Below are positions 12,353 to 19,744 of a DNA stretch of 64,000 nt, in pieces. The position numbers and the translations under genes were made by a program. This DNA comes from a virus (lineage: Duplodnaviria; Caudoviricetes). The stretch's first letter is position 1. Each line of letters begins with the position of its first letter. The stretch is taken from the IMG/VR virus record IMGVR_UViG_3300031949_001696. The stretch is one strand, 5' to 3'. The notes under the pieces were generated by a model that saw only the letters and a list, made by a program, of their open reading frames with translations, searched no databases and was not told the DNA's origin.

Positions 12353-13027
12353 CTAGTCCTCGACCCATCGCCGGAGCAGGTTGGTGTGCGTCTTGGACAA
12401 CAGATCGACCTCCGGCGTCTTGCCGAGCTGCTTGGCCAGTCGGTGATGAGCGGTTCGGAGGTCGAAGATGATCTCGCGCTTCGCGGCGTCGCGCACGAGG
12501 CTGCGGATCCACGTCACCGCGGCCAGGCGCGTTCCCCTCGTGATTTCTTCGACTCGGTGGAGCGCGGTCGCTGGATAGAGGACCGCGCTGCCGGGCGGCA
12601 GCTTGATCGAGCGCTCGCCGGTCGGGAAGTCGATCACGAGCTGCCCGCCGTCGTAGTCGGCCGGATCGGACAGGAACAGGGTGAGCGCGAGGTCGACGCG
12701 CATGTCGCCCATGAGCGCGTTGTCCATGTGCGTGCCGTAGCTCATGCCGAGCGTGTAGCGGGAGAACAGCGGCGGATGGATCTCTTTAGGCTGCGCCGCG
12801 GCCATGAAGAGGCCGTGGTCCCAGAGCAGGTCTTCGAGGAAGTCCTGCATCTTCTCGAGCTGCGGATCGCAGTTGTCTGGATCGTCGCTGACCTGCTCGT
12901 TACGTTTGACCTTGGCGGCGTTTCCACCCGCGGTGGCGCGGCCGTCCTCGAAGGTGGCCTCGGCCAGCCAGCCGCGAAGGCGGGCGACGGTGGCTTCGTC
13001 GATCAGGTTCTCGATGAGGGTCAGCAT
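12353..13027 (-). CDS. PKHD-type Fe(II)/2-oxoglutarate hydroxylase (PiuC/YbiX family)
   Basis: DGRATAG...VKRNEQ, PPLFSRY, YGTHMDNA (HxD), YDGGQL, LHRVEEITRGTR, C-terminal NLLRRW. Confidence 0.9.
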   Translation of the reverse strand: MLTLIENLIDEATVARLRGWLAEATFEDGRATAGGNAAKVKRNEQVSDDPDNCDPQLEKMQDFLEDLLWDHGLFMAAAQPKEIHPPLFSRYTLGMSYGTHMDNALMGDMRVDLALTLFLSDPADYDGGQLVIDFPTGERSIKLPPGSAVLYPATALHRVEEITRGTRLAAVTWIRSLVRDAAKREIIFDLRTAHHRLAKQLGKTPEVDLLSKTHTNLLRRWVED

Positions 13028-13038
13028 GGGACCTTTCG

Positions 13039-13436: not shown

Positions 13437-13850
13437 CTAGTGCCCTGGTGCGAAGGGTCTGCGATCACCGACGCGCAGCTGCTCGTCGATCTCGTGCTTG
13501 TAGATCTCGCGCACGATGTGCCGCACGAAGTCCGCGGCGTTCTCGGCGTGGAAGGCCGGCAGCCTGTAGCGCGCAGTGAGGGGTACGGGGAAGCCTTCTG
13601 CGATCCTGATCGGGATCTTGTTCGGCTCTGCGGGGGTCTGTGTCTCGGGAGCGGGCGAAACGTAGGGAACGATCACTTCGACAATGACGTGGTCGCCGTC
13701 CGGGCGAAACGTGACTGGTAGCGCGCCGCCAACGCGCACCGTGGGAAGGAAGGCTGCCCAGTGCGCGAGGTCGGCGGCAGTGAGCTTGGGATCTGCGTCG
13801 CGATCACGCGGTTCCGCGAGAGTCACGACTTCCGCATCTGGGGAGTTCAC
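13437..13850 (-). CDS. Hypothetical protein (HEIDE motif); truncated paralog at 19460-19660
   Basis: DLAHWAAFLPTVRVGGAL...VEVIVPYV shared. Confidence 0.6.
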   Translation of the reverse strand: MNSPDAEVVTLAEPRDRDADPKLTAADLAHWAAFLPTVRVGGALPVTFRPDGDHVIVEVIVPYVSPAPETQTPAEPNKIPIRIAEGFPVPLTARYRLPAFHAENAADFVRHIVREIYKHEIDEQLRVGDRRPFAPGH

Positions 13851-13939
13851 GAAGGCGTCTCCGACTCGCACATCTTGTAGACGCGGCCCCATGCCGCTGT
13901 CCGCTGTCAGCGCGCGCGCACGGGTACCATTCCAGGTCA

Positions 13940-15469
13940 TTACGCGCCTTTCTGAGCAGTGCGCGGAGCCAATCGCGCTCGGCCATAAAGCAGTCTCTCA
14001 ATAGCCGCGCTAATGGCTAGTTTGTCTTTCTGCCAGTTACGAACGGTGTCAGGAGACACGGCCAGAAGATCAGCGGCAGCTGAGATACTCGCGCCATGAA
14101 ACGTCGGGCTCGCTGCGGACCGAGCTGCGCGCAGGATGCTGCGCACGCATTCTTTGTCTCCGCATGACTTTCGTTTCGCGAAGACGCACGGACTGTCGCC
14201 GTCCCGTGGTTCAAGCAGCACACTACAGCCTGGACATCGGCGCCCATCAACAAGCTTCGTGGTGGTTCGTACCAGAGAGGCGTATTTGCTCGCACATGTC
14301 CCTTCACCACAGGTCTTTCGCCCTACGAAGTTTTCTAGCCTTTCCCCGGCCCTCCGCTCAATAAGCTCATCACAGATTGGACAGTGCCTCGCGACAACCA
14401 CGGTGACGGCTCTTTTGAGCGCGCTTGCTTTGGTCGCGCAGCCTGCTTTCATGCCGCACGTCTTCCGCCTCATGAAAACGCACGGCGTTTCGCCGCCTTT
14501 TCGTTTGAGTGGTTTCGTACAGCTCGGGCAGCACCGCCCTGCGATAACCTTCGTAGTCGTCTGGAGGTTGCTTGCGCATTTTTGGCCGCACGTCGAGCGC
14601 TTCGCGAATTCGTATAGCGGTTCGCCCTCTTTCCGCTCGAGCAACTTCTTGCAACTCGGGCGTGGGCAGCGACGCCCCGCGACGATCTTCGTCGTGGTGC
14701 GTACCATAGACTTGTACTTGCTCACGCACGCCTTATCACAGCACGTGGCGCGTTTGGAAAACCACGTCAGGCTTTCCCAGGCCCTCCGCTCAAGCACCGC
14801 GTCACAGCTTGGACAACAGCGTCCCGCAACAACCTTCACGGCGGGTTTTTGTGCGGCAACCCACGCAAAAGCGCACTTACGACTGCACGTCTTTCGCTTC
14901 ACGAACCTGTGCTGCGCTTCGCCTTCCTTCTGCTTGAGCGTTTTTCTACAACTCGGACTCGGACAGCGGCGACCGGTAACGACCTTCGTAGTCGTCCTGA
15001 ACTTGCTCAGGCACTCGTCTCGGCCGCACGTCTTCCGCTTCGCGAATGACCACGTCTTCTCACCCTCTTTTTGCCTGAGCAGCTTCTTGCAGCTCGGACA
15101 GCGGCGTCCAACGACGATCTTCGTCGTGGTCCTCACCGCGGACAAGAGTTTGGCCCCGCAGCCCTCTTTATTATGGCCGCACGTCTTCCGCTTCGCGAAC
15201 GCAGACAGTGACTCGGCCTTTTTTTGCTTGAGCAGCTTCTTACAACTCAGGCAACGGCGACCGACGACGATCTCGGTGACAATTCTTTTCGCCGCGCCAA
15301 GCTGATAGACGCACGTGCGATCGCACGTCTTTCTTTTTGCGAAGTCACACGGCTTCTCTCCGTTTTTGCGCTTGAGCTTCTTCTTGCAGCTCTCACAACG
15401 GCGCCCTGTGACATCCTTCGTAGCGATCAGTGGCGCAGTGAGCTTGGAGCGGAGGGAGGAGAGCTTCAC
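13940..15469 (-). CDS. Tandem Cys4 zinc-finger repeat protein (9 repeats of ~48 aa) with C-terminal HTH
   Basis: Repeat TTKxVxGRRCPSCxKxLxxKxGE-xxxx-FAKRKTCG..C; GGAGG RBS before GTG 15469. Confidence 0.8.
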   Translation of the reverse strand: MKLSSLRSKLTAPLIATKDVTGRRCESCKKKLKRKNGEKPCDFAKRKTCDRTCVYQLGAAKRIVTEIVVGRRCLSCKKLLKQKKAESLSAFAKRKTCGHNKEGCGAKLLSAVRTTTKIVVGRRCPSCKKLLRQKEGEKTWSFAKRKTCGRDECLSKFRTTTKVVTGRRCPSPSCRKTLKQKEGEAQHRFVKRKTCSRKCAFAWVAAQKPAVKVVAGRCCPSCDAVLERRAWESLTWFSKRATCCDKACVSKYKSMVRTTTKIVAGRRCPRPSCKKLLERKEGEPLYEFAKRSTCGQKCASNLQTTTKVIAGRCCPSCTKPLKRKGGETPCVFMRRKTCGMKAGCATKASALKRAVTVVVARHCPICDELIERRAGERLENFVGRKTCGEGTCASKYASLVRTTTKLVDGRRCPGCSVLLEPRDGDSPCVFAKRKSCGDKECVRSILRAARSAASPTFHGASISAAADLLAVSPDTVRNWQKDKLAISAAIERLLYGRARLAPRTAQKGA

Positions 15470-15551
15470 ACGCCCTCCCAAAGCTCGGCGATCTGCCTCG
15501 CGGTGAGTACGGCGGCGCGTTTCACGAACTCGCCACCAAAGCCATTCCAGC

Positions 15552-17054
15552 TCACCGCACACCTTCTTGAGTGGTGCGCGGAGTCGGGCGTGCTCGATTA
15601 CAAAGGTCTTTCGGCTGGAGGGACTTCTCGATAGCCGTGTCGATAGTCATTCCACAGCTCCGCCAATTATGAATCGTAGAGCTTGTCACACCTAGAAGTG
15701 CAGCGGCAGCTGAGACGTCCGTCCCATGAAACAGTTTCTTATACTGACACTCTTCATCTCGACATAACTTTCGTTTTGCGAAACTGCTCGCGCTCTCGTT
15801 ATTCCGTTGTTCAAGCAGCTTTCTACATCTCAGGCATCGCCGCCCAGCGATGACCTTTGTAGTGGTGCGCACCCTGGATTTATTCTTACGAACGCATACT
15901 TCATCACCGCACGTCGCTCGTTTTGCAAAAGCACTCGGACTTTCCCCGGCGCTCTGCTCAAGAAGCTCAGCGCAGATTGGACAACGGCGCCCTGCGACGA
16001 TCTTCGTGGTAGTTGTGTGTGCCGCTCCCAGCAGGACGGCACACTCACCGCCGCATGTCTTTCGTGCCGCGAATGCACTTGGCGCCTCCCCCTTTCTTGG
16101 TTTGAGTAGCTTCGTACAACTCGGACAGCGGCGCCCGACGACAACCTTCGTGGTCGTCAGGAACCTATACACACATCGTTTTTTACCGCACGTTTTCCGC
16201 ACAGCGAACGCGGCTACGGGCTCGCCCTCTTTTCGCTTGAGCGACTTCCTACAACTCGGACAGCTTCTCCCTGCGACGACCTTCGTGGTGGTCAGCACTT
16301 CGGCCAAGTGTTTTGCTGCGCAGCCCGCTTTCTTGCCGCACGTCTTTCGACTCAAAAAGTCATTCCGTGACTCTCCTTCTCTTCGCTTCAATGCTTTTTT
16401 GCAGCCGGGTGCCAGACAAAAACGCGCTGGATCGCTCTTCGCCCAGGTCGCGGATAGCAGGCTGCCATAACATTTCTCCCCGCACGTCTTCCGTCCCGCG
16501 AAGGCGTTTAGCGCCTCGCTCTTTCTTCGCTTGAGCAGCTTCCTACAACTCGGACAGCGTCGCCGCGTGACGGTGCGAACAACTCCGCCGCTGTGAATGA
16601 CATGTTGGTGCCAGCTCACGCACTTCTTTCGACCACACGTCTTCCGTCTTGCAAATGAGCTTAGCGACTCGCCTTTTTTTCGCTTGAGCAGCTGCTTACA
16701 ACTTGGGCAACGTCGCCCCGCGACGACCTTGATGGTGGTCCTTGTCGCCTTGCTAAGTTTTGCCGCACAGCCTGCTTTATGACCGCACGTCTTCCGCCGC
16801 GCGAAGAAAAAAGGCGATTCGCTCTCCTTTCGCTCAAGCACTTTGTCGCAGATCCGACAACAACGCCCCGCGACGATCTTGGTAATGAACCTTTTCGCCA
16901 TGCCCAGTAGGGCCGCACAGCCCGCTTTCTTACCGCACGTCTTCCGACTTGCGAAGTTACCGAGCTGCTCTCCCTCCTTCCGCTTGAGCACCTTGCCGCA
17001 GACCAGGCAACGACGCCCTGCGACGATCTTGAAGGAAGAGCGTTGCGCCATCAT
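15552..17054 (-). CDS. Tandem Cys4 zinc-finger repeat protein (9 repeats) with C-terminal HTH, paralog of 13940-15469
   Basis: Same repeat; ends FHGTDVSAAAALLGVTSSTIHNW. Confidence 0.8.
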   Translation of the reverse strand: MMAQRSSFKIVAGRRCLVCGKVLKRKEGEQLGNFASRKTCGKKAGCAALLGMAKRFITKIVAGRCCRICDKVLERKESESPFFFARRKTCGHKAGCAAKLSKATRTTIKVVAGRRCPSCKQLLKRKKGESLSSFARRKTCGRKKCVSWHQHVIHSGGVVRTVTRRRCPSCRKLLKRRKSEALNAFAGRKTCGEKCYGSLLSATWAKSDPARFCLAPGCKKALKRREGESRNDFLSRKTCGKKAGCAAKHLAEVLTTTKVVAGRSCPSCRKSLKRKEGEPVAAFAVRKTCGKKRCVYRFLTTTKVVVGRRCPSCTKLLKPRKGEAPSAFAARKTCGGECAVLLGAAHTTTTKIVAGRRCPICAELLEQSAGESPSAFAKRATCGDEVCVRKNKSRVRTTTKVIAGRRCLRCRKLLEQRNNESASSFAKRKLCRDEECQYKKLFHGTDVSAAAALLGVTSSTIHNWRSCGMTIDTAIEKSLQPKDLCNRARPTPRTTQEGVR

Positions 17055-19207
17055 CGTGTCCTCGACCGCTCATTCCCGCGCCCTGCGCGATCGATGTGCT
17101 CGATCCACTCCGCGGGGATTTTACCTGCCTGCACGGCTTTCTCCGCACGCGCCCGTAGCTCCGCACGCCGCTCCTCAAACTGCTTCCAGTTCAACAGGAC
17201 GAGTTCGGCCTCCTGCTCCTCAAAGATCTGTCGCCGCGGCTTCCTCTCCGGCTGCTCAGCGCCGCAGTGTTTGCACTTGGTGCACGACCACGCGATCACC
17301 GCTGGACATCCGACACAGTCTTTGACGCGCGGTTCAACGTCTGCGTTAGGGCGCTCCCCCGCGCCATGCTCAAGAGACCATGGCCAATCTTCGCCGGGAA
17401 CGTGCAGAAGGCGCTCACAGTTTGCGCCGTGATCGAGCACGATCTTTTTGGTCGGTCCTTCTGCGCGTAGCACGCGGGCGATCATCTGCATGAATCTGGC
17501 GAGGCTCTTGGTGGGACGCGCGATGATGACTGCGCCGAGCTCTGGCAGATCCCAGCCCTCGCAAAGCACGTCGACGTTGCACAAGACTTCAAGCTCGCCG
17601 CGGCGAAACCTGCCGATGAGCCGTTCGCGCTCAGTCGCGTCTGTCTCACCGTCGAGATAAGCCGCCTTGATCCCAGCCTTCCTGAACTGCGCGGCGATCC
17701 TCTTCGCGTGCTGACGGGTCGCACCAAACACGAGCTTGCGAACACTCGGAGCCCACTTGATGGCCTCCTTGACGACGTGGCCGATCAGTAGCGGCCGATC
17801 CACCGCGCGACGGAGCGACGACGACGCGTAATCGCCGCCGATCGTCTTTGCACCTTTGAGACCCTTCGCGAGTGCTGCAATAATCTTGGCATCTGCATGG
17901 AGCGTGACAGGATCACGCAGGTAGCCGGCGGCATACAATTCGCTGGGCTTGGCGGCGACCTTCAGAACCTGAAAGAAGTCGCCGAGACCACGACCATCGA
18001 GACGGCACGGCGTGGCCGTCAAGCCGAGCGCGTCGGCACGCGGACACCTCGCCGCAATCGCCTGATACGAATCGGCCATCGCGCGGTGCGCCTCGTCGAA
18101 GACGATCAGGTCGATGTCTTCCGGCAGCTCACGGAGGCTGATCGTCTGCACGCTGCCGATCTGAACACGTGCGTCGAGGTCCACGTGCTCGGGGTAGAGC
18201 TGCTCGTACTTCGCACACTGGACGCCGCAGCGCACGCCAAGTTTCACGAGTCGAGCGCGCGCCTGACCGATCAGCTCAGTCCGATGGGCCAGCCAGAGCA
18301 CACCACGCCAACGCTTTGTCCGCGAAATGAGAAGTGACGCAATGACGGTTTTTCCAGATCCTCCGGGAGCGACCAGGAGAACGCGACGATCTTTCGCGAG
18401 CAGCGGGTCCAGCTCGACGACGGTGCGCTCCTGATACGGACGACGATCTAGTTCCTGTGAAATGCCTGCGGCAAGTCGAAAGGCCGCTACGCGTTCGGCA
18501 GGCAGCGCGTACGGTGAAGCAGCTGCTGGATAAGCACGGGAGGCGGCTAGATCATCTGTAGTGATCCGGGCGAACGCCGGTTGCATCACCGAAGACTTCT
18601 CGATGGAGCTATCGCGCCAGAGCGCCGCACACATCGGCATTCGATGTCCCGTATAAGCCAGGACGGACACGAGCCGATGATCTTGCGGGGTTCGCCTGTC
18701 AAGCAATTCCACGCGGCCCGCCAGTATCGGATCTGGGATCCCCCCGAATGTTCCGTGATCGTACTGCTCGACGACATCACGTCCATAAGAGAACGTGAGC
18801 ATGAAGACCCCACGACGAACGATCGCCGAGTAGACGTCAACCACATTCTCGACATCACGTGTGATCGAGCCGCAAAGATCCAAGTTGATCGCGTCAACCC
18901 CGTGCAGCTCCTTGAGCGGGGGTCTCTTGAAAAGATCGGCGTGCACAACTAGATCCGCTCCCGCCTTGGTCGCGGCCCGACAACATGCTGGGTCGCGATC
19001 GACGGCAATCACCACAGCCGTTGGCATGTGCCGACGAATGCATGCGATCTCTTCAGCCGGCTCGGGACCGGCAACCATAGCCAGCCGCCATTTGGCATGG
19101 TGGACTCTGTCCCGACGCCGAAGAAACGCTTTTACCGCGAGCCAGTGCTCTTCGCGGACAAAGCGCTTGGCATCGGTGCTCTTGGAAGCGTCAAACTTAC
19201 GAGTCAC
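17051..19207 (-). CDS. SF2 DEAH helicase (RadD/YejH-like) with N-terminal SAM-binding-like domain and C-terminal Zn ribbon
   Basis: RPYQ, APGGSGKT, FDEAH, TATP, LCEGWD, QMIARVLR, CxxC..CxxC; N-term VIAVDRD / DAINLDLCG. Confidence 0.85.
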   Translation of the reverse strand: MTRKFDASKSTDAKRFVREEHWLAVKAFLRRRDRVHHAKWRLAMVAGPEPAEEIACIRRHMPTAVVIAVDRDPACCRAATKAGADLVVHADLFKRPPLKELHGVDAINLDLCGSITRDVENVVDVYSAIVRRGVFMLTFSYGRDVVEQYDHGTFGGIPDPILAGRVELLDRRTPQDHRLVSVLAYTGHRMPMCAALWRDSSIEKSSVMQPAFARITTDDLAASRAYPAAASPYALPAERVAAFRLAAGISQELDRRPYQERTVVELDPLLAKDRRVLLVAPGGSGKTVIASLLISRTKRWRGVLWLAHRTELIGQARARLVKLGVRCGVQCAKYEQLYPEHVDLDARVQIGSVQTISLRELPEDIDLIVFDEAHRAMADSYQAIAARCPRADALGLTATPCRLDGRGLGDFFQVLKVAAKPSELYAAGYLRDPVTLHADAKIIAALAKGLKGAKTIGGDYASSSLRRAVDRPLLIGHVVKEAIKWAPSVRKLVFGATRQHAKRIAAQFRKAGIKAAYLDGETDATERERLIGRFRRGELEVLCNVDVLCEGWDLPELGAVIIARPTKSLARFMQMIARVLRAEGPTKKIVLDHGANCERLLHVPGEDWPWSLEHGAGERPNADVEPRVKDCVGCPAVIAWSCTKCKHCGAEQPERKPRRQIFEEQEAELVLLNWKQFEERRAELRARAEKAVQAGKIPAEWIEHIDRAGRGNERSRTR

Positions 19208-19468: not shown

Positions 19469-19660
19469 CCTGTAGCAGCTGGAGTCCGCGGAGGGTTGCG
19501 TCTTGGGCAGTACGTAGGGGACGATCACCTCGACGACGACGTACTCACCGTCCGATCGAAACGTGACAAACAGCGCGCCACCCACGCGCACGGTCGGAAG
19601 GAAGGTTGCCCAGTGCGCGAGGTCCTGCGCATCGAGATTGGGTTCGTCGGAGGTCGACAC
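19460..19660 (-). pseudogene. Truncated copy of the 13437-13850 gene
   Basis: DLAHWATFLPTVRVGGALFVTF...VEVIVPYV then stops. Confidence 0.7.
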
Positions 19661-19661
19661 G

Positions 19662-19742
19662 TTAGGCGGCGACCTCGGCCATCCAGCCGCGGAGGCGGGC
19701 GAGGGTTGCGGAGTCGATCAGGTTTTTGATGCAGATCGCCAT
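19662..19742 (-). pseudogene. 26-aa remnant of the PKHD hydroxylase N-terminus
   Basis: MAICIKNLIDSATLARLRGWMAE vs MLTLIENLIDEATVARLRGWLAE. Confidence 0.7.
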
Positions 19743-19744
19743 GA

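Follow-up and report, generated by a model that had tools for sequence, protein, structure and literature searches.

Array genes and their helicase locus

The DNA considered here, a window of 64,000 nucleotides from a giant soil phage of the class Caudoviricetes, carries two neighbouring genes on its minus strand whose products are built from a small, cysteine-rich repeat and which lie directly downstream of a helicase gene. Array gene A (15552..17054) encodes P0001, a protein of 500 aa in which nine Cys4 zinc-finger repeats span residues 7-441 (15732..17036) and a C-terminal tail, composed of an FHG hairpin and three helices in an HTH-like arrangement, spans residues 442-500 (15555..15731). 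Array gene B (13940..15562) encodes P0002, 540 aa long when read from the GTG at 15562, with nine repeats at residues 47-478 of that reading (14129..15424) and an HTH-like tail (13943..14128) matching HTH_23, HTH_28, HTH_29 and MerR below threshold. In both genes the repeats were delimited through the 18-unit alignment and HMM domains. The start of gene B is uncertain, being either GTG 15562 or GTG 15469, the latter giving 509 aa as called in relatives. A preliminary description of this DNA had proposed two tandem nine-repeat array genes devoid of a nuclease domain, and on both counts it was right: the two ORFs are present on the minus strand with nine repeats each by motif scan and alignment, and a Pfam scan of P0001 and P0002, relaxed to E 1, turns up no nuclease family. 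Opposite-strand ORFs at 14136-15305 and 15850-16470 were dismissed as mirror artefacts of the repeats. Small ORFs neighbouring the arrays gave no family match in a Pfam search.

The upstream gene (P0003, 17051..19207, minus strand) encodes an SF2 helicase of 718 aa, with matches to ResIII (77.9 bits), Helicase_C (61.6 bits), DEAD (39.1 bits) and phrog_16 (1.4e-81). It has an N-terminal extension of about 250 aa, the first 255 aa being without a match in the Pfam search, and its C-terminus is formed by a zinc ribbon, rich in Cys, that bears a helical tail. The ATG of gene A overlaps the helicase stop codon (ATGA), which bears out the translational coupling to the helicase proposed beforehand. 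In L001, L002, L007, L009, L010 and one further contig, too, array genes come straight after an ortholog of the helicase, and gene B itself has orthologs at 5741-7252 in L001 and 3926-5446 in L002. The co-occurrence of homologous arrays with the helicase, a check suggested with the first reading, is seen in seven loci that keep the helicase-then-array order, divergent ones included, with helicase identity reaching down to 57%. The number of array genes per locus ranges from one to four, and these have 3-10 repeats. These seven loci probably represent one viral lineage and hence are not independent.

Complex prediction placed helicase residues 431-718 together with the last finger and its tail at a score of 0.44, the best control reaching 0.01, with runs agreeing in at least 55% of contacts and a partner pLDDT of at least 68. 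The mark used lets through 58 of 80 solved complexes and 2 of 110 mismatched pairs; passing scores of 0.60 or below come from only 7 of the 80 solved complexes and from both of the passing mismatches. The predicted helicase-array contact belongs to this weak class, in which most predictions prove wrong unless a good prior backs them, and lends weak support to a physical partnership.

The repeat unit, its variable surface and the tail

The repeat measures 44-52 aa, with nine copies per protein (motif scan and alignment of 18 units), and its consensus reads TTKxVAGRRCPSCxKLLKRKxGE-x4-FAKRKTCGxxxC. The alignment agrees with the consensus given earlier, where the length had been put at ~45-52 aa. 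Invariant in 18/18 repeats are R8, the four Cys, F28 and R31, while L17 and E23 are conserved in at least 90%, leaving a common finger scaffold of R-x-C-x2-C...L-x-R-K-x-G-E...F-x2-R-K-T-C-G-x2-5-C. All 72 Cys ligands are retained, in two intact frames of at least 500 aa. When the repeat HMM was run against the six-frame translation of the window, matches were restricted to the gene A and gene B frames (E about 1e-182), which excludes a chance origin of the repeats. Pairwise identity between repeats is 35-68%, and they are therefore old; a tandem repeat at the DNA level is detectable only in gene A repeats 1-2 (150 nt, 75%). Repeat comparison also demonstrates that the paralogous arrays are not collinear with each other. 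A recent expansion or a diversity-generating mechanism is ruled out by this combination of divergent repeats and non-collinear paralogs.

Between the conserved E and F lies a four-residue patch, of which all 18 examples listed in the preliminary description (QLGN to SPCV) had been read correctly. It had been called hypervariable, and this holds in part. Across the 18 repeats, patch positions 3 and 4 are the most variable columns (entropy 3.15 and 2.93 bits), but positions 1 and 2 are middling (2.35 and 2.22 bits), and the patch mean of 2.66 bits is equalled in the helix following the last Cys, where four columns average 2.63 bits. The variability claimed for this post-Cys helix is thereby upheld, while variability of the patch above that of the helix is not seen. 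A similar picture emerges from 523 repeats of 147 distant relatives, where patch columns reach 3.56-3.81 bits and are among the top-ranked columns but not alone there, flanked by E in 92% and an aromatic residue in 97%.

Comparison of orthologs gives no significant sign of faster evolution of the patch. For the patch, variable columns stand at 42% against 27% in one gene (p=0.08), and at 32% against 38% in another (p=0.66). In gene B, dN/dS is 0.3-0.4 for whole repeats and 0.06-0.18 for the tail, the most conserved part of the protein among orthologs. Patch values of 1.15-1.68 in the same gene rest on just 2-5 synonymous changes, too few, together with the column tests, for diversifying selection to be claimed. 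In a third array gene, followed through six orthologs, the patches are almost unchanged and 2 of 6 are identical in all six. The patch is therefore better described as repeat-specific than as hypervariable, and the identity of each repeat's patch is maintained across orthologs.

This constancy bears on another conceivable role, in which the arrays would be non-specific or structure-specific nucleic-acid coats, polycationic zinc proteins on ssDNA or dsDNA that act as an SSB-like helper of the helicase or condense the genome. Such a role would suit the net charge of the two proteins (+82 to +86; pI 10.2-10.4), their coupling to a helicase that produces ssDNA, and the variation in repeat length and number among relatives (3 to 10 repeats), which a coat could tolerate. 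The tandem Cys4 ribbons of topoisomerase I bind ssDNA, and one relative has a weak Zn_ribbon_Top1 match (E 0.027). A uniform coat, however, would have no need for each repeat to keep its own patch across orthologs, nor for two to four diverged paralogs to be retained side by side, and we consider the coat unlikely.

The preliminary description also placed an HTH after the repeats. A three-helix tail is indeed present in the AlphaFold2 model of gene A, where a short hairpin precedes three helices at a pLDDT of about 86-88, but Pfam HTH scores remain sub-threshold in both proteins: HTH_23 reaches 19.8 bits in P0002 and 16.8 bits in P0001 against a cut-off of 24.6, and the MerR match of the gene A tail is also below threshold. 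Structural matches to the tail in VIA are weak (Z up to 3.2) and consist mostly of the DNA-binding domains of Par, RacA, MerR and Xis, with Cro protein being the best Foldseek match (E 0.49). The same tail is common to about 18 distant representatives of the family, and HTH_17 is matched at 1.3e-6 in 3 of 149 relatives scanned. Taken from these models and profiles, the tail looks like an HTH of MerR/Xis/Cro type.

Relatives, fold and probable function

No Pfam family covers the repeat. A repeat profile retrieves 705 representatives of metagenomic clusters, most of them carrying arrays of 2-8 fingers, and a Pfam scan covered 149 of these. Nuclease matches among these 149 comprise HNH (27), HNH_3 (9), DUF559 (5), Vsr (4) and MTES_1575 (4), and the finger array is N-terminal in P0024 and P0146, the two relatives inspected for this. 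A Mom-like domain in P0032 is sub-threshold (22.3 bits, cut-off 27.1). The search for homologs of near-equal length returned six relatives, all metagenomic, and two further pair-profile searches added little. P0001, P0024 and P0018 were unmatched by tblastn in 50,697 deposited phage records, a result limited by the low-complexity filter and by tblastn sensitivity. The IMG/VR protein scan gave no match, and a degenerate FAKRKTCG DNA pattern searched against IMG/VR yielded just four chance matches, all to a single unrelated peptide. Leads from ESM Atlas features and shape, with scores of about 0.8 and TM <0.5, are small phage proteins combining a zinc ribbon with a sigma-r4-like HTH, and HNH proteins with DUF2116 or zf-FCS.

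The abundance of HNH and Vsr fusions raises the prospect that the two genes are decayed selfish elements, remnants of homing endonucleases that have neither a nuclease nor a role for the virus. Fluctuation in gene and repeat number among close relatives would be in keeping with this, as would the loss of the third array gene from the window and the frameshift in one array-gene copy of L001. Decay is nevertheless highly improbable, given that both long frames are intact with every Cys ligand in place, that dN/dS takes the values given above in repeats and tail, and that the coupled position behind the helicase holds across helicases only 57% identical.

The fold of the finger was approached through an AF2 model of two repeats (pLDDT 88), in which each repeat is predicted to form a zinc knuckle, a beta bridge, a short helix beginning in the variable patch and a further helix starting at the last Cys. 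None of the structural matches is strong (Z at most 3.2, Foldseek E>0.4). VIA aligns the repeat with YacG (Z 3.2, rmsd 3.1, 37 aa), L24e (Z 2.2) and the FCS finger of L3MBTL2 (Z 2.2), and Foldseek lists weak rows for MYND and YacG (E>1), with nothing at E up to 0.001 for either the repeat pair or the tail. The repeat profile finds nothing below E 2 in a PDB sequence search. On the sequence side, DUF2256 is matched in 8 of the 149 relatives (best 4.7e-9) and zf-FCS in 2 (6.1e-6), and P0129 carries a precomputed PF06467 match, while the Pfam scan of P0001 and P0002 themselves gives no TRASH-clan HMM match. Fingers of the zf-FCS (PF06467)/TRASH type have the Cys spacing C-x2-C-x14-30-[F]C[S]-x2-C (PMC4047054), which the array-finger spacing, C-x2(4)-C-x20-C-x2-5-C, fits. 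Across the family the third Cys is preceded by T (66%) rather than F and followed by S (40%) or G (36%). Sequence and fold leads alike point, weakly, to the TRASH/FCS treble-clef clan.

Many fingers of the TRASH clan bind proteins (YacG binds gyrase; MYND, MYM and HIT fingers bind peptides or SUMO), and therefore the fold alone does not imply DNA binding. The arrays could accordingly be scaffolds or inhibitors in which each finger grips a protein and no DNA is read, whether as a multivalent adaptor, as a docking platform on the helicase or by blocking a host factor, for instance a topoisomerase. Apart from the composition of the clan, this would be supported by the best structural match, YacG bound to gyrase, by the weak MYND rows and by the weakly predicted contact with the helicase. 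The YacG match is itself weak, though, and based on a generic treble-clef core; the arrays of relatives precede HNH/Vsr nuclease domains, where DNA targeting is expected; and extreme positive charge along with an HTH-like tail suits nucleic acid better. Protein binding is on balance quite unlikely.

The reading we favour, at roughly an even chance of being correct, is that P0001 and P0002 are nuclease-free, multi-finger nucleic-acid binders working with the upstream helicase. Nucleic-acid binding, as originally proposed, is a reasonable inference from the nuclease fusions of relatives, the high charge and the HTH-like tail. The architecture, the family, the fusions in its members, the linkage to the helicase and the constancy of each repeat are observed directly; that the proteins hold zinc, bind DNA, prefer particular sequences and partner the helicase is inferred. 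Homing endonucleases employ tandem modular DNA-binding domains plus HTHs (PMC5714182). Each finger would be a small Cys4 TRASH/FCS treble clef, presumably holding one zinc ion, and may derive from a targeting module of homing-endonuclease type such as that placed before HNH/Vsr-type domains in metagenomic relatives; in P0001 and P0002 the tail would have replaced the nuclease and the finger module expanded to nine copies. Two elements would make up the surface particular to each finger: the E-x4-F patch, which opens a short helix, and the post-Cys helix. Since the fingers share a common scaffold while each has its own surface, the array would lay a long, finger-specific surface along DNA. The array genes would be made together with the SF2 helicase and most likely act with it, and the arrays may direct or tether the helicase to particular sites or structures during replication or recombination of the giant phage genome. 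Repeats of 44-52 aa and paralogs that are not collinear argue against a strictly periodic reader, the varying length speaks against a strict form of the repeat code suggested beforehand, and no matching or candidate tandem DNA repeat array that could serve as its target is found in the window.

Comparison with known systems

The array finger resembles members of the TRASH clan (CL0175: zf-FCS/MYM, DUF2256, YacG/DUF329, MYND, HIT, L24e, YHS; clan membership list from PMC4047054) in its similar Cys4 spacing, C-x2-C, ~20 residues, C-x2-5-C, and in its predicted treble-clef layout with the last ligands at a helix start. It differs in having T-C-G/S in place of the F-C-S signature, and an E-x4-aromatic-x2-R-K-T-C core with a short extra helix is specific to the family. 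Animal ZMYM proteins likewise string many fingers of this broad class together within a single chain. Those MYM-type (FCS) arrays occur in eukaryotes, bind chiefly proteins or SUMO, and lack both an HTH tail and a helicase operon. A further likeness is to the finger of NAD-dependent DNA ligase (PF03119), which resembles the first half of the repeat (C-P-x-C-x3-L-x-R-x-E-G-E, profile positions 1-18), the alignment being confined to the knuckle and first strand, whereas the C-x5-C second half of the ligase finger is replaced by x4-F-x2-R-K-T-C-x2-5-C. PF03119 is matched by 7 of the 149 relatives and sums to 34.1 bits in P0002 and 24.1 in P0001 (cut-off 25.8). Membership was rejected because the best stretch covers only positions 1-18 of the 27-position model and P0001 falls below the cut-off.

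Phage homing endonucleases (NUMOD, I-TevI zinc finger plus HTH, zinc-ribbon HNH nickases) are likewise assembled from tandem small modules and an HTH, which target the nuclease (PMC5714182; PMC3592412). The array finger is neither a NUMOD nor the zinc ribbon found beside terminase-linked HNH enzymes, and modules in homing endonucleases are described in one to four copies, compared with nine and no nuclease in P0001 and P0002. Identity with an HNH/Vsr-type homing endonuclease is ruled out, as the catalytic domain occurs only in relatives. The C-terminal domain of topoisomerase I also has several Cys4 ribbons in a row, tied to a DNA-unwinding or strand-passing enzyme system, but these belong to a different ribbon family and are fused to the enzyme in three to four copies, while the arrays are separate genes.

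Judged by sequence, the repeat represents a phage finger family outside Pfam, reaching nine to ten copies per protein, kept as two to four paralogs behind one helicase and reused by many metagenomic HNH/Vsr nucleases. If its fingers read DNA, this would explain site-finding by a class of uncultured homing nucleases, show how a giant phage might direct a helicase and supply the engineering of DNA recognition with a scaffold that is both compact and new. Should they instead bind proteins or coat DNA, this would remain a new domain family of considerable size and worth naming.

Stringing many DNA-binding zinc fingers into one long tandem array is characteristic of eukaryotes and, to our knowledge, hardly known from phages or bacteria. 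With C2H2 and TALE proteins the arrays share tandem small modules, a conserved scaffold, a few repeat-specific surface positions and paralogous arrays in tandem. C2H2 arrays (~28 aa, Cys2-His2) have a different fold, and identity with them is ruled out by the four Cys ligands, the lack of a conserved His and the 44-52 aa repeats; TALE identity (33-35 aa helical repeats with a two-residue variable site) is ruled out by the variable-length zinc fingers and the absence of a TALE-like match. That the arrays form a modular DNA-reading system of a new structural class is very unlikely. In that case the patch and post-Cys helix of each Cys4 finger would engage a short run of bases of fixed length, nine fingers and the HTH would spell a long site, and the two to four paralogs of a genome would aim the helicase at different sites. 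Were this so, the family, which HNH and Vsr nucleases also use, would join C2H2 fingers and TALEs as a third kind of protein scaffold that can be programmed to recognise DNA.

Helicase-array operon

The window encodes an SF2 helicase of 718 aa (17051-19207, minus strand; ResIII 77.9 bits, Helicase_C 61.6 bits, phrog_16 1.4e-81), directly followed by gene A (15552-17054, minus strand, 500 aa), the first array gene, and then by the second, gene B (13940-15562, minus strand, 540 aa counted from the first GTG). Translational coupling to the helicase, proposed in the preliminary description, is borne out by an ATGA overlap between the gene A start ATG and the helicase stop codon. The start of gene B is ambiguous, being either GTG 15562 (540 aa) or GTG 15469 (509 aa, as called in relatives). 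In the relatives the "MSWNG" frame of gene B starts within a GTGA overlap with gene A, and since the junction in the window differs from theirs by 2 nt, this frame is entered here from one of the two GTG codons. The proteins of gene A (P0001) and gene B (P0002) are very basic (pI 10.2-10.4; net charge between +82 and +86). G+C content is 57-60% over the array genes (14001-18000) vs ~63% around, a dip due to Lys/Arg-rich coding and not to foreign origin, while long plus-strand ORFs at 14136-15305 and 15850-16470 were rejected as mirror artefacts of the repeats.

The order of helicase then array recurs at the relatives' loci L001, L002, L007, L009 and L010 and on a further contig, which supports the co-occurrence of arrays and helicase. 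After the helicase, L002 carries an A/B chimera and a six-repeat gene, the further contig genes of 503, 509 and 475 aa, and L007 four array genes (5, 3, 5 and 5 repeats), while in L009 and L010 distant array proteins directly follow a helicase 57% identical to that of the window. L001 has three array genes, the first with ten repeats and a frameshift, followed by genes of nine and six repeats. This first gene (L001 3981-5740), a gene A ortholog in a relative 98% identical, has its tenth repeat at the N terminus and is split by the frameshift; it is either misassembled or a pseudogene. Helicase residues 1-255 (18443-19207, minus strand) form an N-terminal extension of ~250 aa with no Pfam match, which is missing from the 462-aa L007 ortholog. 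Complex prediction places the C-terminal half of the helicase against the last finger and tail of the array (score 0.44 vs 0.01 for the best control; runs agreeing in at least 55% of contacts, partner pLDDT at least 68), tentatively suggesting a contact; by the tool's own caveat, most passes at 0.60 or less are wrong unless there is a good prior.

A third array gene of six repeats, starting M(T/S)WNG, is present in L001 (7252-8343) and L002 (5446-6537) and absent from the window, where the next gene (13437-13940, minus strand, 167 aa, no family found) begins MTWNGT, which resembles what a deletion of all but the opening codons of the third gene would leave. This start motif and an overlapping stop/start junction are found at each boundary between array genes. 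Further downstream lies a PKHD-type 2OG-Fe(II) oxygenase (12353-13030, minus strand; 2OG-FeII_Oxy_3 46.9 bits, PKHD_C 26.1 bits), whose true start in the window probably lies downstream of that of the longest ORF (371 aa), and which also occurs near the helicase-array block in the divergent L007 (2090-2764). The block is flanked by 79%-identical partial copies (19505-19645 vs 13653-13793; 19668-19743 vs 12953-13028) of the 167-aa gene and the oxygenase start, both downstream genes, the upstream copies being broken, with a 26-codon oxygenase start and then a stop. These copies look like traces left by a duplication or rearrangement in which the block was shifted relative to the L007 order of small gene, oxygenase, helicase and arrays.

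Repeats and patch variability

Nine repeats of 44-52 aa per protein emerged from a motif scan and from aligning the 18 repeat units, in agreement with the two nine-repeat arrays described from the sequence, whose eighteen four-residue windows had all been read correctly. No variation occurs at R8, the four Cys, F28 or R31 and very little at L17 and E23, and a repeat HMM found no match outside the two array genes when the whole window was translated in six frames. Pairwise identity among repeats is only 35-68%, the paralogous arrays are not collinear and a DNA-level tandem-repeat signal persists only in repeats 1-2 of gene A, which together mark the arrays as old and diverged and not as products of recent or programmed expansion. 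A fifth Cys occupies the third position of the E-x4-F patch (alignment column 28) in three of nine gene B repeats and in 2/6 repeats of the third array gene of relatives, as seen in P0004, and several repeats carry a Cys right before the first ligand (GRCC); these extra Cys might be alternative ligands or redox-active.

The patch had been described as hypervariable. Among the 18 repeats, patch positions 3 and 4 have the highest entropy of all columns (3.15 and 2.93 bits), but positions 1-2 are unremarkable, and the patch average (2.66 bits) is practically equalled by four columns in the helix after the last Cys (2.63 bits). Family-wide (523 repeats, 147 distant proteins) the four patch columns reach 3.56-3.81 bits between conserved flanks (E 92%, aromatic position 97%), ranking among the top columns with others as high. 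Across three gene B orthologs, dN/dS is 1.15-1.68 in the patch, resting on only 2-5 synonymous changes, vs 0.3-0.6 outside it and 0.06-0.18 in the tail. Column-wise, 42% of patch columns vary in one array gene vs 27% elsewhere (p=0.08), and patches of the third array gene are nearly unchanged among six orthologs (32% variable columns vs 38%, p=0.66). Entropy and ortholog comparisons thus point to a patch that is specific to each repeat and maintained, not hypervariable in the evolutionary sense. A repeat code of the fingers is a hypothesis, treated with caution because repeat length varies, the paralogs are not collinear and no target was found.

Finger family and fold

Pfam holds no model for the repeat, matching P0001 and P0002 only through HTH models below threshold and through the NAD-ligase zinc finger, of whose 27 positions only the first 18 align. 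When 1.84 billion cluster representatives were searched with a profile built from the 18 repeats, 705 proteins were retrieved with E no higher than 0.001, 131 of them at 1e-10 or below, mostly with 2-8 repeats; those looked up were all unnamed metagenomic proteins. The family had no match in 50,697 deposited phage records (tblastn, three members), in IMG/VR (protein scan; DNA pattern search) or among PDB sequences.

Pfam domains counted on 149 of the 705 representatives comprised HNH (27), HNH_3 (9), DUF559 (5), Vsr (4), MTES_1575 (4), DUF2256 (8), DNA_ligase_ZBD (7), zf-FCS (2) and HTH_17 (3), with the array N-terminal to the nuclease in both HNH-type examples read (P0024, P0146). The array-plus-tail design of P0001 and P0002 recurs in about 18 distant representatives (tail HMM). 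Metagenomic P0032 joins five fingers to a sub-threshold C-terminal Mom-family match (22.3 bits vs a cut-off of 27.1), which suggests that the module might also target DNA-modifying enzymes.

A two-repeat AlphaFold2 model, built from 142 adjacent-repeat pairs (pLDDT 88, pTM 0.59), gives each repeat a zinc knuckle and a beta bridge, then a short helix with the variable patch as its first turn and a second helix beginning at the last Cys. VIA matches were weak (YacG Z 3.2, ribosomal L24e Z 2.2, L3MBTL2 FCS finger Z 2.2), as were Foldseek rows for MYND and YacG (E>1). YacG, L24e, the FCS finger, MYND, DUF2256 and zf-FCS all belong to the Pfam TRASH clan (PMC4047054), on which the modelled finger's weak matches coherently fall. 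Protein-binding scaffolds, typical of this clan, are a rival reading of the arrays. The last finger and tail (pLDDT 77) were modelled as a hairpin and three helices, with weak best matches mostly to DNA-binding Par, RacA, MerR, Xis and Cro domains; Atlas searches gave only leads of the same kind.

Interpretation and known systems

Fusions, charge, tail and conserved operon, all indirect, make nuclease-free multi-finger nucleic-acid binders, which would act with the linked helicase, the most economical reading; DNA or ssDNA coats blind to sequence and decayed selfish genes are further rivals. The literature searched yielded neither this finger family nor arrays of nine to ten such fingers, nor a tail-ended, nuclease-free form in tandem paralogs behind a helicase of giant phages. 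The finger class is already known, and modular DNA-binding domains on homing nucleases have been described (PMC5714182; PMC3592412). P0001 and P0002 would represent a nuclease-free, expanded form of a targeting module from phages or homing endonucleases.
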